DNA of 64,000 bases, taken from the NCBI GenBank assembly GCA_003153935.1, contig PMCA01000011.1:67912-131911 (forward strand), written 5' to 3'. This document shows positions 3,566 through 31,281 of this stretch, piece after piece (position 1 is the stretch's first letter; each line of letters opens with the position of its first letter). The position numbers were made by a program, and so were the translations under genes. The stretch is from Elusimicrobiota bacterium (GTDB lineage Bacteria > CAYTYR01 > UBA6262). The notes beneath the pieces were generated by a model. The model ran no database searches. It was not told where the DNA came from and saw only the letters and a program-made list of their open reading frames with translations.

Positions 3566-5119
3566 TTATTTCCTCTCCTGCTCTATTTTCAACATATTTT
3601 CGCGGGAATATTCCTCGATCCGGCTGGAAGTCAGGATATGAGGCGTGACAAAGATCATCAGGTCGACTTTCTGAACTGTATCGCTGTTTTGCCGGAACAG
3701 GGCCCCCAGCAAGGGAATGCTGCCCAGGATCGGGATCTTATAAGAAACCTTGGATTTGCGGGTGGTGGTCAAACCTCCGATTACCACGGTTTTGCCGTCG
3801 CGCACGTTAACCTTGGTAGAAGCTTTCCGGAGAGATCTTATCGGGATCCCGATGTTTTCCCCGTTCTGGAAGGATACTTCCGGTTCCAGCTCCAGGTTAA
3901 CTACGTTACCCTCTTTAATATGCGGCGTAACGCCCAGGATTATACCGACATCCAGAAATTCTATGGCGTACTGAGGATTACCCTTGGCGTCATAGCCGGA
4001 AAATTGGTTATACGGGAACTTATCGGTTATTTCTATCCTGGCCTTTTCATTGTTGACCACCGTAATGGTGGGATTGGACAGGAGTTCGGCCTTATTGGTA
4101 GTTACCAGCGCGTTGATCATGGCCCGGAATTTATCTGTTACTTCGCCGTAAACCAGGCTAGTGCCCAGGCCCTGCGTAACATAACCCAGATTCTGGGTAT
4201 CCGTAGCTATGGGTGGGGTGTTGTACACGGTATTAAAAGTGAAAGTCTGGCCATGGCTGCCAGGCTGGTAGATCCACTGGGCGCCGATCTGGCTCAAAAC
4301 ATTGGAATTCACTTCAACTAATTCCGCGCTGATGATAACCTGGGGAGTTTCCCGGTCCAATTTCAGCACTAGGTCCGCGATCTTATCCAGAATATTATTC
4401 TGATCCTTAACTACCAAGGAGTTCAGGCTTTCATCCACATCCGCGGCTCCGTCCGAAGACAGGGTCTTGGCGATCTCATCCTTTACTTTGGCCGCGGAGG
4501 CGTATTGCAAGGTGAAAACACGGGTTTGAACTTCGGTGCCGGACCCGGCGGGCCGTTCTGAACCGGCCGATTTCACGTCCAGCGCGTCAATGACATCAAT
4601 GATACGGTTAAAATTCCTATAGGTATCGGAAACTATCAGAACTTTGGTCTCGCGGTCCACGTCGATATTACCTTGCGCGCTTAACACATTGACCACCGTG
4701 GTCTTAGCTTGCAGCGGATCCATGTTCTTGATGTTGAAGATCCGGGTATCGATCTGGGTGGGCAGGAGAGCCGAGATCTCGATAATATTTTTATCCGGGA
4801 AAACCTTATAGGCGAAACCGCTGTTGGTGAGAATGGAGGTCAGCACGTCTTCGATCGGTACATCCTTAAAAAAGAAATTAACCTTGCGGCCCCGAACCTT
4901 GTCCACCAGATAAAAATTTATGTTGTTCTGCTGGGACAGGAGTCGGAGAGCATCGTCCAGGTCGACGTTGCGGAAATCGATGGAGATTTTCTTGGCTCGG
5001 ACCAGATCCCAAAAATTCGGATTGTCCGCGGCCCAAAGCCGGGCCGTCGGCAGCGGCCCCGGTACTATCCAGGAAACCGCCAGGAACAGCGCTATTGCCA
5101 AGATTATTTTTTTATACAT
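3566..5119 (-). CDS. pilQ: Type IV pilus secretin PilQ
   Basis: 517 aa. Signal peptide, N-terminal AMIN/N0-like region, C-terminal secretin domain (VISAELVEVNSN, GGLTTTRKSKVSYKIPILGSIPLLGALFR, LMIFVTPHIL). Confidence 0.85.
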   Translation of the reverse strand: MYKKIILAIALFLAVSWIVPGPLPTARLWAADNPNFWDLVRAKKISIDFRNVDLDDALRLLSQQNNINFYLVDKVRGRKVNFFFKDVPIEDVLTSILTNSGFAYKVFPDKNIIEISALLPTQIDTRIFNIKNMDPLQAKTTVVNVLSAQGNIDVDRETKVLIVSDTYRNFNRIIDVIDALDVKSAGSERPAGSGTEVQTRVFTLQYASAAKVKDEIAKTLSSDGAADVDESLNSLVVKDQNNILDKIADLVLKLDRETPQVIISAELVEVNSNVLSQIGAQWIYQPGSHGQTFTFNTVYNTPPIATDTQNLGYVTQGLGTSLVYGEVTDKFRAMINALVTTNKAELLSNPTITVVNNEKARIEITDKFPYNQFSGYDAKGNPQYAIEFLDVGIILGVTPHIKEGNVVNLELEPEVSFQNGENIGIPIRSLRKASTKVNVRDGKTVVIGGLTTTRKSKVSYKIPILGSIPLLGALFRQNSDTVQKVDLMIFVTPHILTSSRIEEYSRENMLKIEQERK

Positions 5120-5123
5120 TGCC

Positions 5124-5678
5124 TCAACCTCCCCTGACCCTCAAAGTTATAGTTTTCGCATCGTTTTTTAGCAATACCCGGTTCTTTAAAATACTTATGA
5201 CCAGGTAAGCTTTTTTACCTTTGATATAAAGATATTCGCCTTCGTGCACTACTTGACCGTTAATGACCGCCAAGGCTTTATTCTTGTACCAGGCTATGCC
5301 TGTAAGCTCCAGCAGGTCTTCCTCTTTAGCGGGAGTTACCGCTACAGGACCGGGAGTTACCGTATTATTCTCCGGGCTCGAATCGCCTGCACCGACAAAG
5401 GGATCCCGGCCCCAAGCTTGGCCGCTGCTGTCACCAGCCGCTTCCGGTGTTGATCCCAGTACGGCGAATTCCTTCTCCGTCGTATTGGCCCTGGTCGATG
5501 GTACGGACTCAACCGGTACCGCAGTGTCCGTCACTTCTCCCGTCGCCGCGGGCGCGCTTTCCGGTGCCGGAGTTGGTTTTAATACCATCTGTTTGTAAAC
5601 AAATAAAATAGCCAGTCCCAGCGCGACCAGGATAATGATTTGCTTTTTGTCGGGTGACTTCTTTCCTTCCGGAGCCAT
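5124..5678 (-). CDS. PilP-like pilus assembly protein (membrane anchor, Pro/Ala-rich linker, C-terminal beta domain)
   Basis: 184 aa. N-terminal TM helix, a low-complexity linker rich in Pro, Ala, Thr and Glu, and a C-terminal KALAVINGQVVHEGEYL...LLKNDAKTITLRV like PilP/GspC beta-sandwich. Sits between pilO and pilQ. Confidence 0.5.
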   Translation of the reverse strand: MAPEGKKSPDKKQIIILVALGLAILFVYKQMVLKPTPAPESAPAATGEVTDTAVPVESVPSTRANTTEKEFAVLGSTPEAAGDSSGQAWGRDPFVGAGDSSPENNTVTPGPVAVTPAKEEDLLELTGIAWYKNKALAVINGQVVHEGEYLYIKGKKAYLVISILKNRVLLKNDAKTITLRVRGG

Positions 5679-5680
5679 GG

Positions 5681-6244
5681 TTATCCTTCACTGCTAATGA
5701 TATACGTATATACCTGCAGGGTAACATCGATATAAGGCAGCTTTTCCGTATTGCGGGTGATCTTCAGGCTTTCCACCTTGATCAACCGTGGCAGTTTTTT
5801 CAAGTTAGCTAAATATTCGCCCAAATTACGGTAACGGCAGCGCATGGTGATCTCGATCGGCAGCCGGTTATAGGACAAACCTCCCTGCTGTTCCCCTGTT
5901 TCCAGGGGTTTAGTATTGATCGAAACATAAGTGATATTAGCCTGGTTGGCCACAGTGGCCAGGGCTTGCAGCAAGCTGGGGATCTGCTTGGAATCCGGCA
6001 GTTTATTCCTAAAGTACTGCCATTGCTGTTCCATCTTACCGGCTTCTTCGCGGATCTTATTCAGGTCCCGCAGAAATTCGTAGGCTCGTTGTATCTCATC
6101 GTTTATTTGTTGTATCTCCGCTTTTTGCTGCGCGATCTTATCACGGGCCGGCTGGATAAAGAAATACTGGCTGAAGCCGGCGATACCGGCGAAGATCAGG
6201 AAGTATTTCAATAAAGCCTTTTCTTTCGCGCCTATCTTTTTCAT
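5681..6244 (-). CDS. pilO: Type IV pilus assembly protein PilO
   Basis: 187 aa. N-terminal TM, coiled coil, C-terminal ferredoxin-like region. Sits between pilMN and pilP-like. Confidence 0.7.
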   Translation of the reverse strand: MKKIGAKEKALLKYFLIFAGIAGFSQYFFIQPARDKIAQQKAEIQQINDEIQRAYEFLRDLNKIREEAGKMEQQWQYFRNKLPDSKQIPSLLQALATVANQANITYVSINTKPLETGEQQGGLSYNRLPIEITMRCRYRNLGEYLANLKKLPRLIKVESLKITRNTEKLPYIDVTLQVYTYIISSEG

Positions 6245-8004
6245 GGTTGGCCGCCAAGCTCGTCTTTTAGTTTACACTGCACCTCGAACGTTATAAAATT
6301 TTTATTCTGTCCTGCCGCTTCCTGCTCCTTTTGCAGGGAGATCAAGTCGGTATCCTTAAAATAGGCCGATTTTTCCAGTGCTTGCAAGAACTGGGCCAGG
6401 ACCGCCTCCGGCCGGTCTCCTCCCAGCATCACCATGCCTTTTAAATTGAGAATGGGTAAGAGTGACGGCGGTGTTACTCTCGGAGTGCCAGCAGCTTCGG
6501 CTCCGGTGGTCGGCGGCGGAACCGCGGAGGCGTCAATTTTTTCCTTTTCAAAGGAAAGTTCATCCAAAATTACCCGGCCGGGGGTTATGTTGCTCAGGGA
6601 CTTGAGCATTTCTACCCATTTAGGATCTCCGACCGTCAATAGGTTGATTAAATTTTGCCGGGTGGTCATTTTTTCTTTTAATTGCTGCAGTTCATAGGCC
6701 TGGGATACCTGCTGTTTAATATCATCCAGGGCCGTCTGGTTGCTGGACACGATCTTCTGATAAGTCCTGATTTGCATGTACAATGAAATATAGACCATGC
6801 CAAAAATGAAAACTATCAGGAAACTGATAATGGCTGTCATAGCGCTGCGGGCAGTCTTAGAGGCCTGCTCCTTCAGCTCCTGCGGCAACAGGTTGATGCC
6901 TTTGGTACCGGTCAGCGCCGCGCCGACAGCAATGGATAATCGCGGGCTCAGTTCGGCCAGTTCTTTTTGGCGCTCCTCCGGCAAGTCCATCTGTATGTTT
7001 TTTAGGGGTTGGCTTACTTCGACGTCCATGCCTAAAGCGCCTTGCAGGAATTCACGCAACCCTTTTAATTCCGCGTTGCCGCCCAACAAAACTACTTTGG
7101 CCACCCGCCGGCCGCGCGATTCTTCTCGATAATAGTCCAGGGAACGGCGTATTTCGTTGGCCAACCGCTCCATCACCGGCCGCACTAAAGGCACGATCTG
7201 GTTGCTATTGATCTCGGGGGTCAACTGCTGGGGATTTTTTTCATCCGGAATGCCCCAGTTCTTTTTCAGGATATCCGCCTGATTTATATCTATTTCTATC
7301 TGCCCGCTGTCAGAGATCAGGGTGCCAACCATAGCCCGGGTGATGGTGTTGCCGCCTAGCGGAATCTCCCGGTTAAAGACCAGGGTTTCCCCAAAGAATA
7401 TGTTGATCGTGGTGGCTTCGGCGCCGGTATTGACCACGGCCAGGGCCTCATCAGCCTTGAAATAATCATTTTTCTTAAAGATCTCCCGCAGGGCGAAAGG
7501 CGCGACAGTGACGCTTTGCGGGCGTATCTGCACGTTCTGCAGCAGGGCCAGGTGCTGGTCGATAACGAATTTCTCTACGGCTACTACCAGCAGTTCCAGC
7601 TTCTTAACATTTTTATCGGTAACTTCTCCCAATACCTGATAATCTACTACCGCGTTCTCAATAGGGAAGGGGATGTGCTCCTTGGCTTCCCATTTCACCG
7701 CCTCCAGCAATTCATCTTTGGGCATGTTCGGCACCAACACTTTGCGTACCGACACGCGCTGGCCGGAGATCACCGTAACTATTCTGGTTTTTTTAAGATT
7801 GATCCCTTCGATACTTTTGCGCAATACCTCCAGGACTACTTCCATGGAAACATTTTCTTTTTTCTCGGTACTTAAGGGAAATTCACCTATGCGGTAGTCC
7901 ACTACCGCCAAGCCATTGACGCTTTCTTTCAGCACGATGACCTTAACCGCGGTGGTACCGATATCCAAACCCACCAAAGGTTGTATGTTACGGATGAATT
8001 TCAC
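6241..8004 (-). CDS. pilMN: PilM-PilN fusion protein (actin-like ATPase PilM fused to bitopic PilN)
   Basis: 587 aa. N-terminal ~360 aa PilM/FtsA-like (VGLDIGTTAVKVIVL, VVNTGAEATTINIF), then the INLLP motif that starts PilN, a TM helix (AMTAIISFLIVFIFGMVYISLY) and a periplasmic domain. Confidence 0.8.
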   Translation of the reverse strand: MKFIRNIQPLVGLDIGTTAVKVIVLKESVNGLAVVDYRIGEFPLSTEKKENVSMEVVLEVLRKSIEGINLKKTRIVTVISGQRVSVRKVLVPNMPKDELLEAVKWEAKEHIPFPIENAVVDYQVLGEVTDKNVKKLELLVVAVEKFVIDQHLALLQNVQIRPQSVTVAPFALREIFKKNDYFKADEALAVVNTGAEATTINIFFGETLVFNREIPLGGNTITRAMVGTLISDSGQIEIDINQADILKKNWGIPDEKNPQQLTPEINSNQIVPLVRPVMERLANEIRRSLDYYREESRGRRVAKVVLLGGNAELKGLREFLQGALGMDVEVSQPLKNIQMDLPEERQKELAELSPRLSIAVGAALTGTKGINLLPQELKEQASKTARSAMTAIISFLIVFIFGMVYISLYMQIRTYQKIVSSNQTALDDIKQQVSQAYELQQLKEKMTTRQNLINLLTVGDPKWVEMLKSLSNITPGRVILDELSFEKEKIDASAVPPPTTGAEAAGTPRVTPPSLLPILNLKGMVMLGGDRPEAVLAQFLQALEKSAYFKDTDLISLQKEQEAAGQNKNFITFEVQCKLKDELGGQP

Positions 8005-8028
8005 TCTTTTCCCTTTCGTACCGCAAAC

Positions 8029-8994
8029 TTAATATAAAGCCGCATTGCTGTAAACATTACTGCTGATCTGATCCCAGATGGAAGTTATATTGGTATTCGC
8101 CAAAGTACTCGGCATCACCCGGAAGATGGTAGCTCCCGGTCCGGGAGTACTGGTCAACACGCAACTGCGCACATATTTCTCGGTGAAACTGGCTCCGGAT
8201 ATGTTGTTAATGCGGCAGCGCGAGCGGATGCGTATCCAGGGCACTTCGATCTCGCTCATTTGCACCCGGTTCCCGCTATAACCGGTGATATTACACTGCA
8301 AATAATTAACGTCGGTAACAACAGCCGGAAAAATATCGTTCCACTGGTTGGTTCCGGGATCAACGGCCCGAGTATATCTAACCGTGTAAGTTACGCCGTC
8401 AGTCGAAGTAGACCAGGAATAATTTGTCGGCCGTCCCGCCGCTGCCGCTCCCTGGCGCCTCATTCTTATTTCATTAACGGCGTAATTAGAGCCGTTGGGG
8501 AACTGGATGGTCAAAGTTACCAGCGGGCCGGGGTTATTGACGGTCCGCCAACTGCTCGCCATATTACCATCCACGGCATTAGCCAGGACATTCGCTCCTT
8601 GTACGCCCACATTGGAAGTAATATTAGCGATACCAAAAGGCGCCGGATTAGTACTCAAAGCCAGATTCCAATTATCAACAAGGAAACTGTAACTTACCGA
8701 AAGATTATTTGGCAAATTCTCTGTCTGGGGACCGAAAGTTCCCAGGTTCCCGGCTGCCGGCTGGATCGTGTTCCAGATATTCAAGGAATTATTCTGTAAA
8801 TATTGCACCGCGCGGGCCTGGGCCGCGTCGGCGGCATAGAAAGCCTGGATGCCAGCTTGTTTAACGGCTACGTCCGCCGTACCCCGCCCGGTCAATTCTA
8901 TATAGGCGACCACTATGCCAGCGACCATGATAACGAAGAAAAATACGAAAATTAAGGCAAATCCGTTCTTTTTAGTTAATATTTTTAACGACAT
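8029..8994 (-). CDS. PilX-N family minor pilin-like protein with C-terminal discoidin (F5/8 type C)-like domain
   Basis: 321 aa. N-terminal hydrophobic PilX_N-like segment (GFALIFVFFFVIMVAGIVVAYIEL...AGIQAFYAADAAQARAV). C-terminal part matches the F5/8 type C pattern (ANAVDGNMASSWRT..PLVTLTIQFPNGSNYAVNEIRMRR...STDGVTYTVRY...VQMSEIEV). Confidence 0.6.
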   Translation of the reverse strand: MSLKILTKKNGFALIFVFFFVIMVAGIVVAYIELTGRGTADVAVKQAGIQAFYAADAAQARAVQYLQNNSLNIWNTIQPAAGNLGTFGPQTENLPNNLSVSYSFLVDNWNLALSTNPAPFGIANITSNVGVQGANVLANAVDGNMASSWRTVNNPGPLVTLTIQFPNGSNYAVNEIRMRRQGAAAAGRPTNYSWSTSTDGVTYTVRYTRAVDPGTNQWNDIFPAVVTDVNYLQCNITGYSGNRVQMSEIEVPWIRIRSRCRINNISGASFTEKYVRSCVLTSTPGPGATIFRVMPSTLANTNITSIWDQISSNVYSNAALY

Positions 8995-9530
8995 TATAGA
9001 TTCCGCGGATGTATTTCAAAACGCAAAGCCAAGTTTTGGGTATTTTTGGTTTCGTCAAGTGTCACGATTATCTGATTGCCGACACCGGAAAAATTAGTGC
9101 TGGGAGGTGGGTTTATACCATAGCAGAGTGAACGCCCCGAACCAAAAACCGGGACGCCATTATAGGTCATAAAACGTAATTCATAGGAAGCAAATGGGTA
9201 AGTGCTGGGCCAACCGGCATCACTGGGATTATAGAGGTAAAAGATACAGGATTCCGCGCCCGGAGTGGTCGGATCAACGTTGGCGGTAAAAATAATCCGC
9301 CCCGGATTAATGATCGTAAAAGTGCTGGCTTTCACTAAATAATTATTCATCAGGTCCCGGGCTTGGGATAACTCACCGCGCAGGTTATAAGTATCCTGGC
9401 CGCTGTTCCAGATTCTCATAACAGACGGGTAAAAAGAAACAGTTATGGCCAACAATATCGACAGGAGCGCTATGGCCACCAATAATTCGACTATCGTGAC
9501 ACCCTTCTGGCTGGGTATAATACTCTCCAC
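8994..9530 (-). CDS. Minor pilin / pseudopilin with prepilin N-terminal methylation motif (PilW-like)
   Basis: 178 aa. QKG|VTIVELLVAIALLSILLAI class III signal, then a beta-rich globular part. Confidence 0.65.
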   Translation of the reverse strand: MESIIPSQKGVTIVELLVAIALLSILLAITVSFYPSVMRIWNSGQDTYNLRGELSQARDLMNNYLVKASTFTIINPGRIIFTANVDPTTPGAESCIFYLYNPSDAGWPSTYPFASYELRFMTYNGVPVFGSGRSLCYGINPPPSTNFSGVGNQIIVTLDETKNTQNLALRFEIHPRNL

Positions 9531-9564
9531 CTCTACCTTAAATTATAAGCGCTATATATCTAAT

Positions 9565-9945
9565 TTAATAATTTCCAACGTAAGTTTCCAGTCTAGTCAC
9601 TGGATTGGTCGCCTGTTTAGCGGCCACATAGGAAACGCTGACCACCACGTCTTTTATCTGCCCGGGCAGGGCGCCGATGGGAGTGACAACTACTTGATAT
9701 GAATAATCTACATAAGGAGCGGCATAGGATGTCAGAGCCACCGGATTGACATTGGCGAAGGAGAGATTCTTTATGCTCTCCATTCTTTCCTGCGCCAGGG
9801 TAAGCGCTATGGAATTTTTCCCGGATAGCGAGTCATGATATTGTCCTTCACCCATAATAACCACTACCTCGGCCAAGCCGACCGCCAGGAGCGCGAAGGC
9901 GAAGATTATCTCAACAACCGTAAAACCGTGAGCATTCTTGAACAT
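9565..9945 (-). CDS. Minor pilin (PilV/GspI-like) with prepilin N-terminal methylation motif
   Basis: 126 aa. AHG|FTVVEIIFAFALLAVGL class III signal. Confidence 0.65.
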   Translation of the reverse strand: MFKNAHGFTVVEIIFAFALLAVGLAEVVVIMGEGQYHDSLSGKNSIALTLAQERMESIKNLSFANVNPVALTSYAAPYVDYSYQVVVTPIGALPGQIKDVVVSVSYVAAKQATNPVTRLETYVGNY

Positions 9946-9967
9946 AATCCCTTAAATAGCAGGTAGG

Positions 9968-10004
9968 GGTGGCTGTTTGAGCTTAATTAGGCCCAAACAG
10001 CCAC
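9968..10004 (-). terminator. Strong stem-loop (13-bp stem) just downstream of the major pilin gene. Putative partial terminator/attenuator.
   Basis: GGTGGCTGTTTG-agcttaattagg-CCCAAACAGCCACC. No clean U-tract follows on the minus strand, so a leaky terminator is more likely than a strong one. Confidence 0.4.
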
Positions 10005-10045
10005 CTGTATACCTAAATTAAATTAATTTAATTTGTATCTGCCTA

Positions 10046-10594
10046 CTAGTTGCTCTGAGGTGTGCCATTGGAAACATAAATCGATGTTCCCGCTGCGGTT
10101 ACTGCTCCGGTAGCCGCAGTTGTGCACGCCGTGTTCACCCGGCCGGTGCCGTTGGACCAGATCACGTAATATCCTTGGGCATTGACATAAAAGCCATACT
10201 CCACGGCTCCCGCTGCCGGCGAGAACGGATCCATTAATTCCGCGCTCAGCATGATCGGGCCGTTGGTTCCCAGCACGTTAGTAGTATGGTCAACAGTCAA
10301 GTGCGTGGTCATCCAACCCGTACCGGATACTCTTGAACCAGTATACGCCGCCTGTGCGCCGGTATCGGTATTATCAGGATACTTGGCTAACCCAGTAGAG
10401 CGTGGCGCAGCCGCATAAGCCTCTACGGCAGTACGCAGGGTCGCCAGATTTGACCTGGCCTTGGATTTTGCTCCCTCGTCCTGCATCCCTCTGAAACGTG
10501 GCAAACTAATACCGATTAAAATAGCAATGATTGCCATCACTATCAGAAGCTCGATAAGGGTAAATCCTTCCTTGTTCTTAAAAGCTCTCATCAT
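10046..10594 (-). CDS. pilA: Type IV major pilin / GspG-like pseudopilin (PilA-like)
   Basis: Class III signal MMRAFKNKEG|FTLIELLIVMAIIAILIGISLP. The ORF track start at 10648 adds an unlikely 28-aa leader, so the internal Met at 10594 is preferred. Mature part is rich in Gly, Thr and Ala, as in pilins. Confidence 0.7.
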   Translation of the reverse strand: MMRAFKNKEGFTLIELLIVMAIIAILIGISLPRFRGMQDEGAKSKARSNLATLRTAVEAYAAAPRSTGLAKYPDNTDTGAQAAYTGSRVSGTGWMTTHLTVDHTTNVLGTNGPIMLSAELMDPFSPAAGAVEYGFYVNAQGYYVIWSNGTGRVNTACTTAATGAVTAAGTSIYVSNGTPQSN

Positions 10595-10652
10595 TTTTTT
10601 CACCTCCTTTCTTTTTGAAATATACCACAATTCACTTACTCTATTCAAGTTT

Positions 10653-11861
10653 TTACTTAACCACCTTCATCATATCAAACATCGGCAAGAAGACGCTGGC
10701 CAGCAGGAAGCCCACGGCCGAGCCCACCAGAATCAGGAACACAGGTTCGATCAGAGTAGTAAGCTTTTTAACGCTATAACTGACGTTGGTATCATAAAAA
10801 TCAGCTATCTTGGTGAGCATGGTGTCCAGACTGCCGGATTCTTCGCCGACCGCGATCATCTGGATGGTATCCGGCGGGAATTCCTCACTGATACGCAACG
10901 GCTCAGCGATCTTGCTACCTTCAGTTACGCCTTCCCTGACCCGCCTGATAACCCGGGCGATAATTTCGTTGCCTACAACTTTTTCCACTATCTCCAAAGA
11001 TTCCAGGATAGGTACGCCGCTGGCTGTTAAAGTAGCCAGGGTGCGGGCAAACCTGGCGATGGCTATTTTGCGGGCCAGCACACCCACTACCGGGACCTTC
11101 AACAGGTATTTATCAAACATCAGGGTGCCGGCGGGAGTGGCAAAATACCATTTCAGCGTGACCCAGACCCCGATAAAACCGGCGATAATTACATACCAGA
11201 ATTTCCGGACTATCTGGCTGAAAATAAATACTATCTGCGTCGGCATCGGTAATTTGACGCCGGCTTTCAGGAATACATCAACGAACATCGGGATGAGAAA
11301 GATGGACAGGAACATGATCACGGAGAACCCGACTATCACCAGGATGATGGGATAAACCATCGCGCCTTTTATTTTTTCTTCCAGGTCCGCCTGGTGTTCG
11401 GCGAAAATGGCCAGACGGTTCAAGACCGTATCCAGGGTGCCGCTGACCTCGCCGGCATGTACCATGTGGATCGTCAATTTATTGAAGACCCGCGGATGCT
11501 TGGCCAAGGCGTCGGAAAAAGTGCCGCCGGCCTCGATACCGCGGTAGACGTCCTGGATGATCTCCCGGAACTTGCGGTTTTCCACCTGTTTGGTCAAGGT
11601 ACGCAAACTGGTCAGTAATGACAAGCCCGCACCAATCATATTGGCTAACTGTACGTTAAAAAGGATCAGGTCCTCGTTCTTTACTTTGACAAACCTGTCG
11701 CCAAAACCGAGCTTGATCCCGGATTTTTGTTCCGTGATATCGGTTACAAAATAGCCGATGCTTCCTAATTTGGACGCCAAGGCTTCCCGGTTCTTGGCTT
11801 CCATCACGCCTTTTATCTGTTTGCCCATTTCGTCCCGGGCTTTATAAACGAAAACTGCCAT
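10653..11861 (-). CDS. pilC: Type IV pilus inner-membrane platform protein PilC (GspF family)
   Basis: 402 aa. Two GspF repeats, three TM segments, typical PilC N-terminus. Confidence 0.9.
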   Translation of the reverse strand: MAVFVYKARDEMGKQIKGVMEAKNREALASKLGSIGYFVTDITEQKSGIKLGFGDRFVKVKNEDLILFNVQLANMIGAGLSLLTSLRTLTKQVENRKFREIIQDVYRGIEAGGTFSDALAKHPRVFNKLTIHMVHAGEVSGTLDTVLNRLAIFAEHQADLEEKIKGAMVYPIILVIVGFSVIMFLSIFLIPMFVDVFLKAGVKLPMPTQIVFIFSQIVRKFWYVIIAGFIGVWVTLKWYFATPAGTLMFDKYLLKVPVVGVLARKIAIARFARTLATLTASGVPILESLEIVEKVVGNEIIARVIRRVREGVTEGSKIAEPLRISEEFPPDTIQMIAVGEESGSLDTMLTKIADFYDTNVSYSVKKLTTLIEPVFLILVGSAVGFLLASVFLPMFDMMKVVK

Positions 11862-11879
11862 TAGCTGACCTCGGCTCTT

Positions 11880-13583
11880 TTAATCTTCCTGGGTGGCCCT
11901 GATCACCTCGTCCACCGTGGTAACGCCTTGCAGAACTTTCAATATACCGTCATCGCGCATGGTTTTCATCCCGGCCAGCACCGCTTCCTTGCGCACTACG
12001 TCCATAGAGGTTTTCTGGACGATCAGGCTGCGGATCTTATCATTAGGCAACATAAGCTCGAAAATACAAATACGTCCCTTGTAGCCGGTACCCATGCAGG
12101 TCTTACAGCCTTTGCCATGGTATACCTTCACCCCTTTTTTTGCCGGGTCAATACCGGCCTGCTGCAATAGTCCGTCCGGTGGTTTGAATTCTTCCTTGCA
12201 ATTGGGGCAGATCTTGCGTACCAGGCGCTGGCCGATAACCGCCAGCACCGATGAGGAAACCAGGAACGGCTCCACACCCATATCTACCAACCGGGTAACC
12301 GCGCCCGGCGCGTTATTGGTATGCAGGGTGCTGAAGACCAAATGACCGGTAAGAGCCGCCTGGATGGCGATCTCCGCCGTCTCCAGGTCTCTGATTTCTC
12401 CGACCATCACCACGTCCGGGTCCTGACGCAGAATAGCGCGCAAGCCGGAGGAAAAGGTCAGCCCGGCCTTAACGTTGACCTGCGCCTGCCGGATAAGTTT
12501 TAACCTATATTCCACCGGGTCCTCAACGGTTATGATATTTTTATCGATGGTATTAATAACATTCAAGGAGCTGTAAAGGGTGGTGGTTTTACCGCTGCCG
12601 GTAGGCCCCGTCACCAAGACGATACCGTAAGATTTTTTAATCGTTTTATTAAATTCTTCCAGGACATCCGGCGCGAACCCAAGTTGTTCCAGCCCCAGCA
12701 GGGCTTTGGATACGTCCAGGATCCTCATGACGATATTTTCGCCGTAAATAGTGGGCAAGGTAGAGACACGCATGTCCACCTGCCGGTTCTCCACCTTGAT
12801 GCGGAACCGGCCGTCCTGCGGCACGCGTTTTTCGGCGATATCCATTTCGCTCATGATCTTGACGCGTGACAAAATAGCGGCCTGGATGTTCTTAGGCGGC
12901 GCCGGCACTTCCTGCATCACCCCGTCTATGCGATAACGGATGCGGAGCATGTTCTCTTCCGGCTCGATATGTATGTCGCTGGCTCCATCCCGGATAGCAT
13001 TCATGATTAGCAGGTTCACCAGTTTTATGACCGGCGCTTCTTCCGCCAGGTCCTGTAATTTTTTAGCCTCGATGTCATGTTCGCCAGTCCCGAGCAGTTC
13101 GCCTTCGTCCTCTTCGATCTTCTTGATCACTTCGTCCATGGTGCCGGTGACGCCGTAATACTGGTCGATCGCCCTTTTAATATCGCTGTCCGTAGCCAGC
13201 GCCGGTTCCACCGTGCAACCCGCTTTCAGGCTGACTTCGTCGATAGCAAAAACGTTCAGAGGATCCGCCATGGCTACAGTTAAAGTATCGCCGATCTTGA
13301 ACAACGGCACCAGCTGGTATTTCCTGGCAACGTATTCTGGTACCAGGTTGACCGTTTCCGGGTCCACCAGGTAATCCTTCAGGTCGACATGCGGTATGCC
13401 GAGCTGCTCACCGAGAAAACTGACCAGGGCCTCTTCACTGATCAGGTTCAGCCGCACTAACACCTTGCCCAGCCTCTCGCCGGATTCATGCTGTACTTTC
13501 AAGGCCTCATCGATCTGCTGTTTGCTTACCAGCCCAGCCTCTACCAGTATTTCCCCTAATTTTTTCTTCTCGCCTTTTACCAC
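11880..13583 (-). CDS. pilB: Type IV pilus assembly ATPase PilB (GspE family)
   Basis: 567 aa. GspE_N/MshEN N-domain, Walker A GPTGSGKTTTLYS, Asp/His boxes, tetracysteine motif CPNCK...CKTCMGTGYKGR. Confidence 0.9.
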   Translation of the reverse strand: MVKGEKKKLGEILVEAGLVSKQQIDEALKVQHESGERLGKVLVRLNLISEEALVSFLGEQLGIPHVDLKDYLVDPETVNLVPEYVARKYQLVPLFKIGDTLTVAMADPLNVFAIDEVSLKAGCTVEPALATDSDIKRAIDQYYGVTGTMDEVIKKIEEDEGELLGTGEHDIEAKKLQDLAEEAPVIKLVNLLIMNAIRDGASDIHIEPEENMLRIRYRIDGVMQEVPAPPKNIQAAILSRVKIMSEMDIAEKRVPQDGRFRIKVENRQVDMRVSTLPTIYGENIVMRILDVSKALLGLEQLGFAPDVLEEFNKTIKKSYGIVLVTGPTGSGKTTTLYSSLNVINTIDKNIITVEDPVEYRLKLIRQAQVNVKAGLTFSSGLRAILRQDPDVVMVGEIRDLETAEIAIQAALTGHLVFSTLHTNNAPGAVTRLVDMGVEPFLVSSSVLAVIGQRLVRKICPNCKEEFKPPDGLLQQAGIDPAKKGVKVYHGKGCKTCMGTGYKGRICIFELMLPNDKIRSLIVQKTSMDVVRKEAVLAGMKTMRDDGILKVLQGVTTVDEVIRATQED

Positions 13584-17020: not shown

Positions 17021-17056
17021 CTGTAATTATTACCTGCTTTTGAGAAAATTTTCGTT

Positions 17057-26362: not shown

Positions 26363-26857
26363 TTACTCGTTTTTAAGGTGGGTGTAGCTTTCCAGAGTTA
26401 CCATTTGCTCGTTCTTAGCTAAAACCAGCTTGATATAGATGCAGCGCGGATCCTCATCCGGGGGAATAGTGGCCGGATTGCTTTTGGCGAAATATATCTG
26501 ATTTAAATTGGCGGTAACGGTGCTTTCCACTCCATTCAATTGACGCCATAAGGTCGTGCCGTTTAAATAATAGCTCACGTTGAAGGTCCCGGTATCCTTT
26601 ACCATAGTGAAAGATATTTTGCTGTTGGCCGGCGTAGCTCCAGTATATACTACGACTGTGGACGCTTGCGCTTGCCGGATATACTGGGTCATTTCGTCCA
26701 TAGCTACCCGGGCGCCCTGCTGTACTTCTACCTGGGAATAATTCTTCTTCCAGCTTTTGGCAGTGTTTTCAAAAAATCTAGCACCAGCTATAACCAGCAC
26801 CCCCATTATCATGACTACCATCATGATTTCTGTGAGGGTAAACCCTTTATCCTTCAC
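26363..26857 (-). CDS. Pseudopilin / minor pilin with prepilin N-terminal methylation motif (GspJ/PilW-like)
   Basis: 164 aa. DKG|FTLTEIMMVVMIMGVLVIAG class III signal. Confidence 0.65.
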   Translation of the reverse strand: MKDKGFTLTEIMMVVMIMGVLVIAGARFFENTAKSWKKNYSQVEVQQGARVAMDEMTQYIRQAQASTVVVYTGATPANSKISFTMVKDTGTFNVSYYLNGTTLWRQLNGVESTVTANLNQIYFAKSNPATIPPDEDPRCIYIKLVLAKNEQMVTLESYTHLKNE

Positions 26858-26907
26858 GCTGTCCCCCGAGAGCCTAAACTTTCTTCCCTACGGACATATT
26901 ATACTGA

Positions 26908-28323
26908 TTATTTCACTTCTTGCCAAGTAATAATTTTAAATGGGTACAAGCTGTCGGCATTGCTTATGGCGGTGGGGTCGTAAAGTATATCCGCAGTGCC
27001 AAGGATAGCCGCCACATCAACCATGGATTGGGTCAAGATACTACCGCGAATTAAGGCATGCCCGGCCATATGAAAACTGCCTAAGACATAGATAACGCCG
27101 TCGAATTGTCCGCCGCCATTCATGTCAAAATCGCCATTTACTATCAAGATCCCGCTGCCCGACCAGCCCGCATTGACATGAAAATTACCCTCGATCCAGG
27201 TGATCCCATGGCAAGCCACGTTATTGGCCGGGTTATAATATTTAGCATTGGCAAACCCAACTAATTGCGCCTGGGTCAAACCGAAAACATCTTCAAAACT
27301 GGGGAAGGGAGCGTTCCCTGTGGGAGGATTGCCGGCGACTGAACCGCTGCCAAAGGTGTTGACATTGTTGCCCACAGGCACCAGCACCCCGGTTATAGAA
27401 CCGCCGCCAATATGGGCGTTACCGCCTATGTTAACGTTACCGCCGCATGTCAACGCGCTGTCCACGGAGATATTGCCCGCTAATTTTTCGACGGTTGCTT
27501 TTATCTTCTTGGAATATACGCTTACTTTACTGGTAGACAATATGTCCCGTTTATTGGGAAAGCCGGCCGGCGTGGAAACAACCACAGTAAATTGGCCCTC
27601 TCCTAACGAAGTCCCGTCCTCTCCGGCATAGCTGGCGTCTCGGTTCAATTCCCACATCGCTTTTTCTATCCCGGCGTCAGCTACATAAAGAGCGCTATTC
27701 CCCTTACTGCTTTTTACGGTTTTTTGGCTTTCGCTCCTGGTAACATAAACCAAGGAAGTGCCTATACCTAAAACAATGATCAGTACGCCTACGGCAAATA
27801 GCAGGGTATTACCTCGGTTATCTTTGACCTTCATTTTCCTGACTAGGATGAAGATCCCAAACCCTAACAGGACTAAAAGCATCGCTCCCGGCAGCCAGAT
27901 AGGCCAGCCAGAGCCACTTTCTTCATTGGCCAAGGCTTTTTCTCTGGCTTGCGCTGCTTCTTTATTAATCATGACCATTGATGGTGCTGGTTGGCTGCCT
28001 ATAGGGGATACCGTGTTCGTATTTTGGTTAGCTGGTATATTAAGCTTGTCACTGTTGGCCTTCTTCCTGGCAATTTCCTCTTTGGAAGGCATGGGATAGG
28101 ACCTGGGCGCCGGCTTAACCAGGGGAACCTTGATACCTGATAAGGCTTTGGCTTTCTTTTCAGTAAGGATCTGCTGTTTCATGGCATCTTCGCGAGCTAC
28201 AGCGCTACTCAAGTCCGGGACGCCATCAGCCACGTTCCGTAAAGCAAACACCTGACTGCAAACCGTTATTAACATTAATGTCATTATTACTGAAGTTAAT
28301 AAAACCTTATGTTTCGACATCAT
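26908..28323 (-). CDS. PilX-N family protein with N-terminal 160-aa extension and C-terminal Gly-rich beta-helix-like repeats
   Basis: 471 aa. Residues ~163 onward (MKVKDNRGNTLLFAVGVLIIVLGIG...ALYVADAGIEKAMWEL) align with the start of the downstream paralog. C-terminal repeats GGNVNIGGNAHIGGGSITG...VNGDFDMNGGGQFDGVIYVLGSF. The start abuts the upstream stop, which supports the long form. Confidence 0.55.
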   Translation of the reverse strand: MMSKHKVLLTSVIMTLMLITVCSQVFALRNVADGVPDLSSAVAREDAMKQQILTEKKAKALSGIKVPLVKPAPRSYPMPSKEEIARKKANSDKLNIPANQNTNTVSPIGSQPAPSMVMINKEAAQAREKALANEESGSGWPIWLPGAMLLVLLGFGIFILVRKMKVKDNRGNTLLFAVGVLIIVLGIGTSLVYVTRSESQKTVKSSKGNSALYVADAGIEKAMWELNRDASYAGEDGTSLGEGQFTVVVSTPAGFPNKRDILSTSKVSVYSKKIKATVEKLAGNISVDSALTCGGNVNIGGNAHIGGGSITGVLVPVGNNVNTFGSGSVAGNPPTGNAPFPSFEDVFGLTQAQLVGFANAKYYNPANNVACHGITWIEGNFHVNAGWSGSGILIVNGDFDMNGGGQFDGVIYVLGSFHMAGHALIRGSILTQSMVDVAAILGTADILYDPTAISNADSLYPFKIITWQEVK

Positions 28324-28332
28324 CCCTCCGGA

Positions 28333-29763
28333 CTATCTAACTTCCTGCCAGGAAACCAGGTATACGCCCCGCACCCGTGGCAACCCCAGATCAATAAACC
28401 TGTTCGGATCGCTATTATAACGGCTGTGCGCGCGTTCATCATAGTTGAACGTCAGACCGCTGCGATATATTATGGCTTCATCTTTGGAGATAATTGAACC
28501 GTTAAACTGGACGTCGTAACCAGAGCGGCCGGCCCAGGCATGATTGGTGTAAAACAGGCCTTCAATTTTAGAGGTATAGTTTGAAGCTAAATCGCTATAA
28601 TTGTTCACTCCCGCAGGCAAATTGCCAAAGGTAGTTACCGGCGTCTGTGTTTCCACGTCGGTCCAATTATAATTGCGCTCAATCACGCCATCTTCATTGG
28701 GGTCCGCACCCATATCAAATAAATATTGATCAGAGTACCACTGATCAGACCCGTTATATCCGTAATGATTATCCTTGGTATAATCGCCTAATATGATGTT
28801 ACCCCTGGCGGCATAAGCCACCATATCGCAATTTTTATTAGCATCTACCCATTGGTCTTCGGTTTGGCCTGCCGCCGGCCGCGGGGTAGCGGGCGCGTTT
28901 TTGTATCCCAAATTATCGGCAACATAAATGTTCCTACCGGTATATAAGGTCCCTTTACCGGTAACCACTCCTTTAAGGATAACATCTCCTCTCACCACTA
29001 CAGTACCGGTTATCTCAATAGGATGAGCAGAAGTGCCAACAAGTACTATGTTGCCGCTTTCACCGGCATCATCACCATAAACCTTGTCGATTACCGTGGC
29101 TCCGTTGATTGTCACCGTACCACTGGAAGTAAAAGCCTTGGATTCATAATAATCCAGAGACTGGAGATTAGGCATTGGTAACTGTTCAGAAAATTCATGT
29201 TGATGCGCCGGATTCCCACCCAGACCGCGGACTGGAGTACCATGGTCATCTATTTCTGCTCCGGCATAGATATCCCCTTCCACCTTGGGCCCATCAACAA
29301 AATCAAAACGCCCGTTGGAACGAACGTCGCCATAGGCTGTAATATCATGGCCCCAATACCAGCCCCAGTTATTAATGAAGTAACAATAATCAAAGACCCG
29401 CGAAATAGGATCTTTTTCAATTACCGCTTTTATCTTCTTCGTAACATTAATGCTGGTACTGTTCATTAAGGCGGTAGAAAAGAGTTGGTAGCGGCTGCTG
29501 GTTAGCTGGGTAACTGCCACGCTGAATGACCCTACGCCTAACGGAGTATTATTCTCTCCTATATAGGCATCATTATTGGTGAACTCCCAGATGGCTTTTT
29601 CAATGCCACCGTCGGCGATATAAAGAGCTTCTACTGATTTTTGGCTACGCAGGGTGTTTTTGCTGTTGCTGTGGGAAAGAAAAACCAGGGTACTTCCTAT
29701 CATAAAGATCAGCAGTAAAAACCCAAGCATGTAAACTGTGGTGAACCCTTTATTTTTTTTCAT
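28333..29763 (-). CDS. PilX-N family protein with C-terminal beta-helix-like repeat domain (paralog of 26908..28323)
   Basis: 476 aa. MKKNKGFTTVYMLGFLLLIFMIGSTLVFL...ALYIADGGIEKAIWEF (PilX_N). C-terminal GTVVVRGDVILKGVVTGKGTLYTGRNIYVADN repeat region. Confidence 0.6.
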   Translation of the reverse strand: MKKNKGFTTVYMLGFLLLIFMIGSTLVFLSHSNSKNTLRSQKSVEALYIADGGIEKAIWEFTNNDAYIGENNTPLGVGSFSVAVTQLTSSRYQLFSTALMNSTSINVTKKIKAVIEKDPISRVFDYCYFINNWGWYWGHDITAYGDVRSNGRFDFVDGPKVEGDIYAGAEIDDHGTPVRGLGGNPAHQHEFSEQLPMPNLQSLDYYESKAFTSSGTVTINGATVIDKVYGDDAGESGNIVLVGTSAHPIEITGTVVVRGDVILKGVVTGKGTLYTGRNIYVADNLGYKNAPATPRPAAGQTEDQWVDANKNCDMVAYAARGNIILGDYTKDNHYGYNGSDQWYSDQYLFDMGADPNEDGVIERNYNWTDVETQTPVTTFGNLPAGVNNYSDLASNYTSKIEGLFYTNHAWAGRSGYDVQFNGSIISKDEAIIYRSGLTFNYDERAHSRYNSDPNRFIDLGLPRVRGVYLVSWQEVR

Positions 29764-29779
29764 AGGCCACCTCCTTAGG

Positions 29780-30226
29780 TCAAATGCCCCTGGCGACCAA
29801 GCTAACGTATTCCATGTTGCGCTGGGCGCCGCGTTCTTCCCACACCACTTTTACCGATACCTGCTTCAATCCCTGATCTATAGCCGAAGCGGTTAATACT
29901 CCGCCCACCGTCTGCATATAAGTGACTTTAACTTGCCGGTTAAACATCAAGGACCCCTTCTGGGTTAATCCCTTGGTAACATCAACCGCCCAGACATCGG
30001 AGGTCCAGACCCCTTCCGGCAAAGAGTCATAATCCCGGTTCTTCAAGTCCTCCATTTTCGCCCTGGCAAAGTTACTGGCCAGGGTTTCAAATTCACTGGC
30101 TTTGGCCGACATGGTAACTGAGCCGAACAATTTCGCTACTACGATCATAGAGTAGCCAAGAAGCAGGATACCCAAGCAAATTTCTATCAGGGTGAAACCA
30201 CGTTTATTTTTGAAGCATTTTAACAT
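29780..30226 (-). CDS. Minor pilin (PilV/GspI-like) with prepilin N-terminal methylation motif
   Basis: 148 aa. NKRG|FTLIEICLGILLLG class III signal. Confidence 0.65.
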   Translation of the reverse strand: MLKCFKNKRGFTLIEICLGILLLGYSMIVVAKLFGSVTMSAKASEFETLASNFARAKMEDLKNRDYDSLPEGVWTSDVWAVDVTKGLTQKGSLMFNRQVKVTYMQTVGGVLTASAIDQGLKQVSVKVVWEERGAQRNMEYVSLVARGI

Positions 30227-30370
30227 ATATCCTCCTGCCGATCAACTACTCCCCTAATATAAATATACCACTAAATCTCGTCTATATCAATGTATCATTT
30301 ACGGGGTATTGTACTCCAAGTAGAGGCTAAAAAGCAAGGATAATTGATAAATAAAATGGACAAAAAAATA

Positions 30371-30738: not shown

Positions 30739-31194
30739 CTATTTTCGTTTTTCTTTAAAAAACTCTTTTATTAACTCTCTGCATTCTTTTTCTAAAATAC
30801 CAGCATGAACCTTAATGCGATGGTTTAATTTTTTATTACCGGTCACATTTAATACACTGCCGCAAGCCCCGGCTTTCGGGTCTTTGGCTCCAAAATGCAG
30901 TTCCCTGACCCTGGCGTTTACCAATGCTCCTGCGCACATGGCGCAGGGCTCGATGGTTACATAAAGGATGACCTCGGGGAGACGGTAATTGCCGATCTTT
31001 TTGGCCGCTCTACGCAAGGTAACTATTTCCGCATGGGCAGCGGGGTCCGTTGTCATGATCGGGCAGTTATGCCCACGGGCGATTATTTTCCCGTCGAGAA
31101 CTGCCACTGCCCCAATTGGGACCTCATTTTTTCGCTTCGCTTTGCGGGCTTCTTTAAGCGCTGCTTGCATGAAATATTCATTTGTTCTTATCAT
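30739..31194 (-). CDS. tadA: tRNA adenosine(34) deaminase TadA
   Basis: CMP/dCMP deaminase Zn motifs HAEI and PCAMCAGAL. Start taken at MIRTNEYF (31194), because the ORF track extension reads through the tRNA-Arg gene. Confidence 0.85.
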   Translation of the reverse strand: MIRTNEYFMQAALKEARKAKRKNEVPIGAVAVLDGKIIARGHNCPIMTTDPAAHAEIVTLRRAAKKIGNYRLPEVILYVTIEPCAMCAGALVNARVRELHFGAKDPKAGACGSVLNVTGNKKLNHRIKVHAGILEKECRELIKEFFKEKRK

Positions 31195-31207
31195 CGAATA
31201 AAAAAAG

Positions 31208-31281
31208 CGCGCCCTACAGGATTCGAACCTGTGGCCTACTGATTCGTAGTCAGTCGCTCTATCCAACTGAGCTAAGGGCGC
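31208..31281 (-). tRNA. tRNA-Arg (anticodon ACG)
   Basis: GCGCCCTTAGCTCAGTTGGATAGAGCG-ACTGA-CTACGAA-TCAGT-AGGCC-ACAGGTTCGAATCCTGT-AGGGCGC-G, 74 nt. Confidence 0.85.

Follow-up and report, generated by a model that had tools for sequence, protein, structure and literature searches.

In the stretch of 64,000 nucleotides analysed here (the window; all coordinates refer to it and to its minus strand), four pilin-like genes lie between a tRNA/tadA block and tmk. One of them, gene C, raises a particular question, as its pilin helix begins only at residue 172, behind a signal-peptide-like segment and a membrane helix. Does this extension belong to the pilin, was it joined on from another gene, or does it reflect a misplaced start codon or a faulty assembly, and could a prepilin peptidase process such a precursor?

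The gene set and its two large proteins

The cluster consists of the four open reading frames at the positions first listed for them: gene A (29780..30226, 148 aa), gene B (28333..29763, 476 aa), gene C (26908..28323, 471 aa) and gene D (26363..26857, 164 aa). They are separated by 16 (A-B), 9 (B-C) and 50 nt (C-D), with two tRNA-Ser genes and one tRNA-Arg gene just upstream, and tmk follows 5 nt beyond the end of gene D. The original prediction took the cluster to be inserted at this place. This does not hold, as the relatives are syntenic (tadA, A-B-C-D, tmk-holB-PSP1-metG) and the G+C content is unremarkable. A promoter-like site upstream of gene A (TTGATA-17-TATATT with TG, 30262..30290) is weak evidence, as promoter-like sites occur in the region at chance (10 found, 8.6 expected).

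Gene A, the first gene of the cluster in every related locus, encodes a GspI/PilV-like small minor pilin with Glu5 and the leader MLKCFKNKRG/FTLIE (the slash marks the end of the leader). Its N-terminal matches to PilV, GspG and GspH are weak, and that to Pfam N_methyl (PF07963; 13.9 bits) lies under the cut-off of 21.2. Gene D (leader MKDKG/FTLTE, also with Glu5) is GspJ/PilW-like and scores above the cut-offs for N_methyl (24.8 bits against 21.2) and TIGR02532; its N-terminus resembles Verru_Chthon cassette protein C, GspJ and PilV. The leaders of A, B and D are short and hydrophilic and end in Gly, as in the class III signal peptide of type IV pilins (IPR012902), and in all four proteins hydropathy reveals that the Gly is followed by a hydrophobic segment some 20 residues long (alpha-1N). 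These leaders, helices and family matches bear out the assignment of the locus as a minor-pilin or pseudopilin cluster. Genes A-D form a conserved, operon-like minor-pilin set, in which the small Glu5 pilins A and D accompany the Glu5-less, PilX/ComZ-type B and C.

B and C had been described as two paralogues of about 475 aa. They are homologous (27% identity over 296 aa, E 3e-24 by BLASTP), with the similarity peaking in the N-terminal helix and first sheet. The similar lengths of their reading frames are a coincidence, because the pilin portion of C spans only 300 aa (residues 172-471), far shorter than the approximately 470 aa of B. Gene B has the leader MKKNKG/FTTVY, without Glu5; over 365 homologues with lengths of about 500 aa were found, and many are named PilX-N or Tad. 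As for the PilX_N start first attributed to the pair, neither protein has a Pfam match at E<=1, but precomputed assignments to PF14341 exist for some B homologues and to PF13400 (Tad) for others, and NCBI names one C homologue PilX-N. Neither B nor C matched the Pfam N_methyl HMM, nor the GspK family models in Pfam/NCBIfam scans at E<=1. GspK membership was considered and rejected, given this lack of a family match and an insert domain modelled as a beta-solenoid rather than as alpha-helical.

A beta-helix in both large proteins had been proposed from sequence repeats, and AF2 indeed predicts beta-solenoids with high confidence (pLDDT >=90 across most of residues 210-470 of C; mean pLDDT 89.7 for B). 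The G-x-I-x-V-x-GD repeat itself is present but loose: by relaxed regular expression, C has four copies and B has two. The model of B comprises a helix (residues 5-63), a four-strand sheet (69-117), the solenoid and a last strand (467-475). In C, the pilin alpha-1 helix NTLLFAVGVLIIVLG... (residues 172-228, 27640..27810), which starts NTLLF and lacks Glu5, is modelled as a helix from 170 to 228 that aligns with B residues 7-60. It leads into a four-strand pilin sheet (229-280, 27484..27639; strands 234-240, 243-250, 258-267 and 270-280, pLDDT about 90) and then a Gly-rich beta-solenoid of short strands (281-461, 26941..27483, pLDDT about 90). Like the model of B, that of C closes with a single conserved strand past the solenoid, in this case FKIITWQEVK (462-471, with the stop codon 26908..26940; modelled strand 462-470). 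Residues 340-470 are conserved across many phyla, and P461, W467 and E469 are invariant.

The best Foldseek match in the PDB was, for both models, the tip pilin ComZ (6qvi; E 4e-8 for B and 5e-7 for C, probability 1.0), followed by DUF3494 ice-binding solenoids (E about 5e-3 to 1e-2). The likeness to ComZ is one of fold only, with low global TM-scores (0.19-0.31), and profile searches of PDB sequences gave no homology to ComZ or to any other PDB chain. According to the models, both B and C bear a beta-solenoid on a pilin helix and sheet. The terminal strand of C may return to the pilin sheet as in ComZ. Because the fold match is a tip pilin, the polymer-forming role that had been entertained for these proteins is unlikely.

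The N-terminal extension of gene C

Hydropathy places three hydrophobic segments in C (residues 5-29, 139-167 and 169-197), and the order of segments is as first described: signal-peptide-like, Pro-containing (KPAPRSYPMP), membrane helix, pilin helix. Residues 1-27 (28243..28323, by hydropathy) end VFA/LR, where a signal peptide would probably be cleaved. A27, L28 and R29 are invariant among 13 long forms of C, and the stand-alone small proteins described below share a YA/LR or YG/L motif with this end. Residues 28-141 (27901..28242), predicted to be periplasmic, match no Pfam family; AF2 renders them mostly helical or disordered, at low confidence (pLDDT 29-67), and in alignments the motifs QE..L.kQI..EKK and KPxPKSxPMP are conserved. 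The membrane helix (142-161, 27841..27900, by hydropathy) aligns with the C-terminal membrane helix of a separate 120-aa protein in a related genome (L017). It is followed by a basic cytoplasmic loop, RKMKVKDNRG (162-171, 27811..27840), which is the fusion junction. This loop is exactly 10 residues long, basic and begins with K or R in all 14 fused forms, and its last residue, G171, the presumed prepilin cleavage site, is invariant in 20 of 20 sequences.

Gene C is a conserved in-frame fusion, the first 161 residues of which derive from a small membrane-protein gene. Gene fusion was among the options raised originally, and in three related genomes (L017, L055 and L056) the same segment is indeed a separate gene of 120-122 aa, with B on one side and a short C on the other; a profile of the extension matches the small ORF of L017 with E 2.3e-10. 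Of 20 homologues from the first round of searching, 13 have the long form; they retain the motifs and are 42-67% identical to the window protein, and therefore the objection that homologues start at the internal Met fails. A further fused homologue (P0142) brings the total to 14, all from independent assemblies. Searched against 1.84 billion representative proteins, the extension profile found only two fused and two stand-alone clusters, besides one spurious match. A neighbour-joining tree without bootstrap favours one fusion and several losses.

Could the fused reading frame nevertheless be misleading? It is very unlikely that C truly starts at the internal Met164 (MKVKDNRG), which would make the upstream 163 codons a separate or vestigial stop-free frame. 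The window does have an ATG seven codons ahead of Gly171, preceded by AGGAAA, and short forms of C with leaders of this kind exist. However, no internal start codon before Gly171 is conserved, M164 included: one fused homologue (L008) has no ATG, GTG or TTG within the 30 codons preceding the Gly, and the sole candidate in another (L009) is a TTG that falls within the membrane helix. The frame is open throughout 14 diverged sequences, and each of the five loci for which DNA was available has a GGAG Shine-Dalgarno sequence ahead of the long start. Purifying selection acts on the extension, with a dN/dS of 0.26 that comes from one unsaturated pair, dS being saturated in most. Dual initiation of C may occur in this organism. 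An assembly or sequencing artefact, a lost stop or a frameshift between two genes, is more improbable still. The gaps between the small gene and the short C are only 13, 3 and 16 nt in L017, L055 and L056, so that one error could fuse the two. Against this, the fused form recurs in independent JGI, ENA, Logan and NCBI assemblies at 42-100% identity, and its junction is a re-tailored 10-residue loop rather than the unfused junction read through.

In 51 of 67 metagenome loci, B is immediately followed by a small gene with the architecture of this segment, which combines a signal peptide, a charged periplasmic region, a membrane helix at the C-terminus and a basic tail; among background ORFs the figure is 15 of 700. 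Such a gene follows B-type genes across many phyla, often overlapping them by 4 or 13 nt. B and the small segment are co-present or co-absent in all syntenic loci. Because the small gene follows B far more often than the background, the extension of C is the usual partner of B, joined onto C; by origin it belongs to the partner gene of B rather than to C. The small protein matches no known family.

Possible processing of the fused precursor

The original prediction held that canonical prepilin processing could not accommodate the extension. The predicted topology leaves room for it: an N-out/C-in protein has its tail in the cytoplasm, and because this tail is joined to the pilin leader, itself cytoplasmic, Gly171, which is invariant, stays at the cytoplasmic face. 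Prepilin peptidase works on this face (PMC10191384). The fused precursor would insert by way of a cleavable signal peptide, a periplasmic segment, a stop-transfer helix, the 10-residue basic loop and the pilin helix, with the head exported. We infer that prepilin peptidase would then cut after Gly171, parting the two proteins; an ordinary mature pilin would be freed and the small protein left anchored in the membrane.

C lacks the short, wholly hydrophilic leader of the other three proteins, having instead a pre-sequence of 171 residues with two hydrophobic segments, of which only the last 10 residues are leader-like. To our knowledge, all described prepilin substrates have short, purely hydrophilic N-terminal leaders; the long ones of type IVb and S. 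sanguinis pilins run to about 15-30 residues. The length of the leader before the conserved Gly is variable, and leaders in the type IVb and S. sanguinis pilins are hydrophilic (PMC10191384). The pre-sequence of C differs from these, since it stems from another gene and includes both a membrane helix and a signal peptide. With its leader tethered in this way, access of the peptidase may be blocked.

It is possible, though we consider it unlikely, that C is not cleaved and forms a hairpin in the inner membrane, so that the solenoid and the small-protein segment both lie in the periplasm. C would then stay anchored and nucleate the filament, form part of its base or stop it, and would not be set free as a tip subunit. 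A leader that includes a membrane helix lies outside the canonical definition of a prepilin peptidase substrate, and a literature search found no precedent for one. The residue at +1 has shifted from F or L in unfused relatives to N, S or Q in fused C, and the fixed 10-residue loop would fit the constraints of a hairpin equally well. Moreover, TadG-type proteins, which probably stay membrane-bound, share N-terminal PF13400 matches with some B homologues. On the other hand, a mere hairpin would not need the Gly at -1, which is invariant. Unfused C proteins have 11-residue leaders ending KDKRG/F, and in secondarily short forms a piece of the fused membrane helix or loop has been kept as the leader (LLFKKSNGKKEQG/ in L007, KAYSKKEDG/ in L137). 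Since the nearest unfused and secondarily shortened relatives combine ordinary short leaders with an otherwise identical pilin, the core of C is built as a normal pilin. This core is also strongly constrained (dN/dS 0.08), and its fold matches a tip pilin.

Known systems and the proposed role

ComZ of Thermus thermophilus (PDB 6QVI) is a competence-associated tip pilin whose small sheet is GspK-like and whose beta-solenoid, large, triangular and similar to DUF3494 ice-binding proteins, is inserted before the last strand; DNA binding and contact with the neighbouring minor pilin are further properties of ComZ (PMC6561018). It shares with B and C the succession of N-terminal hydrophobic helix, small pilin sheet and beta-solenoid, without a canonical pilin sequence signature, and its gene likewise lies among small minor pilins. 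Its solenoid is larger, at about 380 aa compared with about 180 aa in C, and it has neither an N-terminal fusion nor a reported small partner gene. In cyanobacteria, PilX subfamilies with a solenoid before the last strand are proposed to plug the tip in organisms without PilY1, and several alternative minor-pilin sets per genome prime different filaments (bioRxiv 10.64898/2026.02.12.705559). The window similarly contains two minor-pilin sets; the comparison, with another phylum, is by description only, and a fused membrane-protein segment is not described there. The GspK/PilX (PilK) cap is Glu5-less and expected to start assembly and to sit at the tip (PMC10191384). Within GspI-J-K and PilH-I-J-K it is the largest minor pilin and has small Glu5 partners, as B and C have in A and D. 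The GspK insert is alpha-helical (PMC6561018), in contrast to the solenoids of B and C, and the present type of cluster brings two or three cap-type paralogues together.

The sole type IV filament machine in the window lies at 3566..13583 and includes a secretin, a PilO-like protein, a PilM-PilN fusion, PilC/GspF, a PilB with an MshEN domain and a 200-aa major pilin. It has its own second minor-pilin set, lectin-bearing and PilX-like; no prepilin peptidase gene was found within the 64-kb window. Taken as a whole, our reading of a minor-pilin tip set with a fused C, cleaved after Gly171, and a small partner of B is one that we hold to be probable. A and D, with either B or C as the Glu5-less cap, would form a tip or priming complex for this machine, as an alternative to its own lectin-bearing set, and the solenoid may plug the tip or act as an adhesin, roles that have been proposed for ComZ and for PilX of cyanobacteria.

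It is improbable that the cluster instead serves a type II secretion-like pseudopilus, with A/D/B or A/D/C as GspI/J/K-like tips and a solenoid in contact with a polysaccharide or a secreted substrate, a suggestion also made for the Hps system of cyanobacteria. A and D do have weak N-terminal matches of GspG/H/I/J and HpsC type, the pilin domain of ComZ is nearest to that of GspK (PMC6561018), a link between PilX and EPS/HpsA exists in cyanobacteria (bioRxiv 10.64898/2026.02.12.705559), and the machine has a secretin and GspE/F-type parts. However, its PilM-PilN, PilO, MshEN-type ATPase and 200-aa major pilin are more typical of pili, and no GspC/L/M set was seen. This alternative concerns the use of the filament only and is compatible with the fusion.

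The least secure step in the tip-set proposal is what the small protein does; our guess is that, anchored in the membrane, it may assist the B-type solenoid pilin. If C is cleaved, the fusion would do no more than couple the synthesis of both proteins one-to-one.

The pilin cluster and its solenoid proteins

All four minus-strand genes of the original prediction were found as ORFs at 26363-30226: A (29780-30226, 148 aa), B (28333-29763, 476 aa), C (26908-28323, 471 aa) and D (26363-26857, 164 aa). They are separated by 16, 9 and 50 nt, with 5 nt from the end of D to tmk, and the G+C content of the cluster resembles that of its surroundings. Genes A and D encode typical short prepilin-type proteins (KNKRG/FTLIE and KDKG/FTLTE, with the slash after the leader Gly); D passes both Pfam N_methyl and TIGR02532, and A scores below the N_methyl threshold. 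A promoter and terminator scan of the cluster region gave matches at chance level overall; among these, an 11/12 match to the sigma-70 consensus (TTGGCA-17-TATAAT) at 26898-26926 (minus strand), at the 3′ end of C and ∼40 nt upstream of D, could provide a separate promoter for D and tmk-holB.

Upstream of the cluster lie two tRNA-Ser genes, tadA and tRNA-Arg(ACG). The tadA gene (30739-31281, minus strand), of the tRNA adenosine deaminase type, is directly downstream of tRNA-Arg(ACG), which is the substrate of its product; since the mechanical ORF start (TTG at 31266) falls inside the tRNA gene, the true start must be further in. Elsewhere in the window, 36709-56913 is the neighbourhood of the chromosomal origin, with parB, parA, gidB, mnmE, jag and yidC on the minus strand and dnaA (46045), dnaN, recF, gyrB and gyrA on the plus strand. 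The minimum of the cumulative GC skew is near 34000-35000, not at dnaA. A 482-aa ORF at 61715-63163 (plus strand) has no Pfam match at E ≤ 1e-4.

B and C had been described as PilX_N paralogs. The two are indeed homologous (27% identity over 296 aa, E 3e-24, strongest over the helix and first sheet); a Pfam scan matched neither to any family at E ≤ 1. Both lack Glu5 (KKNKG/FTTVY in B, DNRG/NTLLF in C). The B family is large, with more than 365 matches of ∼500 aa, many from Omnitrophota and some named PilX-N or Tad. The C family is small (21 matches), and the last ∼130 residues of C recur in many phyla.

The beta-helix-like domains proposed for these proteins appear as solenoids in the AF2 models of both, which were built from alignments of 20 sequences for C and 41 for B. 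The model of C, with pLDDT of at least 90 over most of 210-470, consists of a helix (170-228), four strands (234-280), many short strands (289-447) and a last strand (462-470), preceded by low-confidence helices over residues 1-165; B follows the same plan with a larger solenoid (mean pLDDT 89.7). In Foldseek searches of the PDB, ComZ of Thermus thermophilus (6QVI) ranks first for C (E 5e-7) and B (E 4e-8), each with probability 1.0, followed by DUF3494 ice-binding solenoids. Profile searches with B and C matched no PDB sequence and the TM-scores are low (0.19-0.31), so that the likeness is one of fold only. The pilin domain of ComZ is GspK-like, its solenoid interrupts this domain ahead of the last strand, and the protein is placed at the tip because it is too bulky for the fibre body (PMC6561018). 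Cyanobacterial PilX reportedly follows the same plan, and such proteins have been proposed as tip plugs (bioRxiv 10.64898/2026.02.12.705559). As modelled, B and C are ComZ/PilX-type solenoid pilins, new members of an already known kind of protein.

Origin of the N-terminal extension of C

Hydropathy and translation bear out the predicted order in C, in which a signal-peptide-like start is followed by a Pro-containing stretch, then by a membrane helix and the pilin helix, with hydrophobic segments at residues 5-29, 139-167 and 169-197. Were the extension an artefact of start choice, homologues would be expected to start uniformly at the internal Met; instead, the long form (447-468 aa) is found in 13 of the 20 aligned C-family proteins, from JGI, ENA, Logan and NCBI assemblies. 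The long forms share a hydrophobic start, an invariant A-L-R, a QE..L.kQI..EKK stretch and a KPxPKSxPMP motif and, nearer the pilin part, a membrane helix, a basic loop and an invariant Gly. In all five loci examined at the DNA level GGAG precedes the long start, whilst the 30 codons before the Gly contain no conserved start codon, and in one locus (L008) none at all, which makes Met164 of the window's protein a local accident. The dN/dS ratio was usable for one pair (L006 vs L008, dS ∼0.95), giving 0.26 for the periplasmic part, 0.32 for the helix and loop and 0.08 for the pilin core; the other four pairs each had at least one region in which dS was either saturated or undefined. No record matched the C protein of the window exactly, and the database copy (P0001) starts at M17. 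By these comparisons the N-terminal extension of C is real.

Domain databases gave no name to the extension. Pfam and NCBIfam searches with B, C, the extension and six stand-alone small proteins returned only sub-threshold noise, driven by the membrane helix (DUF7649, EssA and AmaP among the matches). A sortase, PEP-CTERM or GlyGly-CTERM sorting signal was considered for the helix and basic tail and rejected, as no conserved signature motif precedes the helix; the sole hint was an LAETG match with E 0.34.

The source of the extension is indicated by L017, a syntenic but more distant MAG, where the genes run A, B, a 120-aa gene, C1 (324 aa), C2 (320 aa), D, tmk, holB and PSP1. The 120-aa protein has a signal peptide, the sequences YALRQIP and KENLEKRKIVEEQK, and a C-terminal membrane helix with KKVKS after it; 13 nt separate the end of its gene from C1. 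When a profile built from the 13 extensions was searched against 4079 ORFs, this ORF matched with E 2.3e-10, and the match covers the N-terminal motif region as well as the C-terminal helix. The relationship is detected solely by the 13-sequence profile; pairwise BLASTP between C and the 120-aa protein gave no significant match (E 0.17). A search of 1.84 billion representative proteins with the profile gave five matches in all. Two are fused clusters, P0005 and the divergent 488-aa P0142, and two are stand-alone proteins of 121 and 122 aa (P0144 and P0145). The fifth, P0143 (4350 aa), was rejected as spurious, its score being a sum of ∼3-bit matches over 211-aa tandem repeats. The genes for P0144 and P0145 are located exactly where expected: L055 has B, the small gene and a short C-type gene that runs off the contig end after its start, and L056 has B, the small gene, short C, D, tmk, holB and PSP1. 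The short C proteins beside them carry ordinary 11-residue leaders (MKTFVLKDKRG/FGIVL). With the same segment encoded by a separate gene in L017, L055 and L056, the extension of C is, judged from sequence, a gene fusion, one of the options originally raised.

The small gene as a neighbour of B

Three arrangements occur among the syntenic loci: A-B-small::C-D with the small segment fused (the window, L004/5, L006, L008, L009), A-B-small-C-D (L017, L056), and A-C-D with neither B nor the small segment (L007/L010, L014, L015, L016, L137). B and the small segment are thus always both present or both absent. In Omnitrophota loci, each B-type gene is followed by a gene of 141-169 aa with the architecture of the small gene; one such locus (L054, 6001-10295) has a tandem double module of B-type solenoid pilin and small membrane protein, of 517 aa + 159 aa and then 523 aa + 169 aa.

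Metagenome contigs were then scanned with the B alignment and the best 80 loci sampled. Among the 67 with enough downstream sequence, a small-type gene directly follows B in 51 (the overlap with the stop of B is 4 nt in 21 loci and 13 nt in 9), against a background of 15/700 other similar-sized ORFs in the same loci that fit the rule. A stricter rule gave 38/75 loci, with wrong frames in G+C-rich loci; the value of 51/67 comes from the looser rule and its control. By gene order, the fused segment of C is B's partner by origin.

In five loci (L102, L103, L092, L119, L089) the gene after B begins as the small partner does and extends to 265-343 aa. The L103 protein has an additional region, presumably cytoplasmic, beyond a detected membrane helix, which suggests that the small-protein tail tolerates other fusions too; a hydropathy scan of the long genes in L089, L092 and L102 detected no second membrane helix.

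In a crude neighbour-joining tree of the C core, the fused forms make up a grade in which the short forms are nested, suggesting that fusion happened once, long ago, and that at least three losses followed. In two secondary short forms the leader retains part of the fused membrane helix or loop (LLFKKSNGKKEQG/SAMIM in L007, KAYSKKEDG/NAMIF in L137). Orphan extra copies of short C-type pilins occur in L001, L011, L012 and L013. In L001, L002 and L012 a C-type copy, remote from any pilin cluster, directly follows a gene of ∼2900 aa of the GH94 type (cyclic glucan synthase-like).

Proposed tip role and processing of the fused precursor

The window contains a type IV filament machine (3566-13583) with a secretin, a PilO-like protein, a PilM-PilN fusion (6241-8004, minus strand, 587 aa; PilM_2 at residues 12-365, PilN at 534-579), PilC, PilB with MshEN and a major pilin (10046-10648, 200 aa). 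Among these genes, a Glu5-less PilX-like protein (8029-8994, minus strand, 321 aa, TKKNG/FALIF) carries an F5/8 type C (discoidin) lectin domain, and two small pilins (9565-9945 and 8994-9530) and the major pilin precede it. From its sequence this group looks like a lectin-type tip set. The Glu5-less B and C, their ComZ-like fold and the analogy with GspI/J/K lead us to infer that A and D, with B or C, would act as the filament tip. The A-D cluster looks like a second, alternative tip set, and the organism appears to have two, one with a lectin domain and one with a solenoid. The MshEN domain of the pilus ATPase (11880-13583) is of the c-di-GMP-binding type, and a GAF-GGDEF protein, a hybrid PAS-GAF histidine kinase and a GAF-HD (HD_5) protein are encoded at 14477-18490 and 32196-33428, hinting at c-di-GMP control of the filament.

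A prepilin leader lies inside. The small protein, once its signal peptide is removed, is predicted to span the membrane with the N-terminus outside and the C-terminus inside; the fusion would therefore keep both topologies. In all 14 fused forms the junction between the two helices is exactly 10 residues, the first K or R and the last an invariant Gly. Given that prepilin peptidases act on the cytoplasmic side, cutting immediately ahead of the hydrophobic helix (PMC10191384), this junction makes cleavage after Gly171 the most likely course. It would probably, though far from certainly, release a normal mature pilin and leave the small protein anchored in the membrane. The main alternative, which we regard as unlikely, is that C stays uncleaved as a hairpin-anchored protein. 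No prepilin peptidase gene lies in the window, and the literature, incompletely covered, yielded no precedent for long or membrane-spanning prepilin leaders. It is possible, if somewhat doubtful, that the peptidase splits a two-protein precursor, at an internal site past a membrane helix, into a tip pilin and an anchored accessory, 1:1 and side by side, the accessory being an undescribed but widespread partner of solenoid PilX in several uncultured phyla.

As far as the searchable literature shows, the fusion of the small segment to C and the link of the small gene to B are new; within that incomplete coverage, neither a prepilin with a membrane-spanning pre-sequence nor the small partner gene has been described. 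The organism, which is uncultured and whose GyrA shares 65-69% identity with proteins named Elusimicrobiota, would add one more, Elusimicrobiota-affiliated, lineage to the bacteria capping type IV filaments with a solenoid PilX/ComZ-type pilin. The new points are that, in many metagenomic lineages, solenoid PilX-type genes are regularly followed by a gene for a small membrane protein, and that in one clade this gene has long been fused to the next pilin. The fusion offers a natural test of the length of pre-sequence that a prepilin peptidase tolerates. Cleavage, if true, would widen the known substrate range of these enzymes and suggest a simple scheme for the co-expression of membrane partners; if C is not cleaved, a pilin-fold protein would be permanently hairpin-anchored and would need a new role in assembly.
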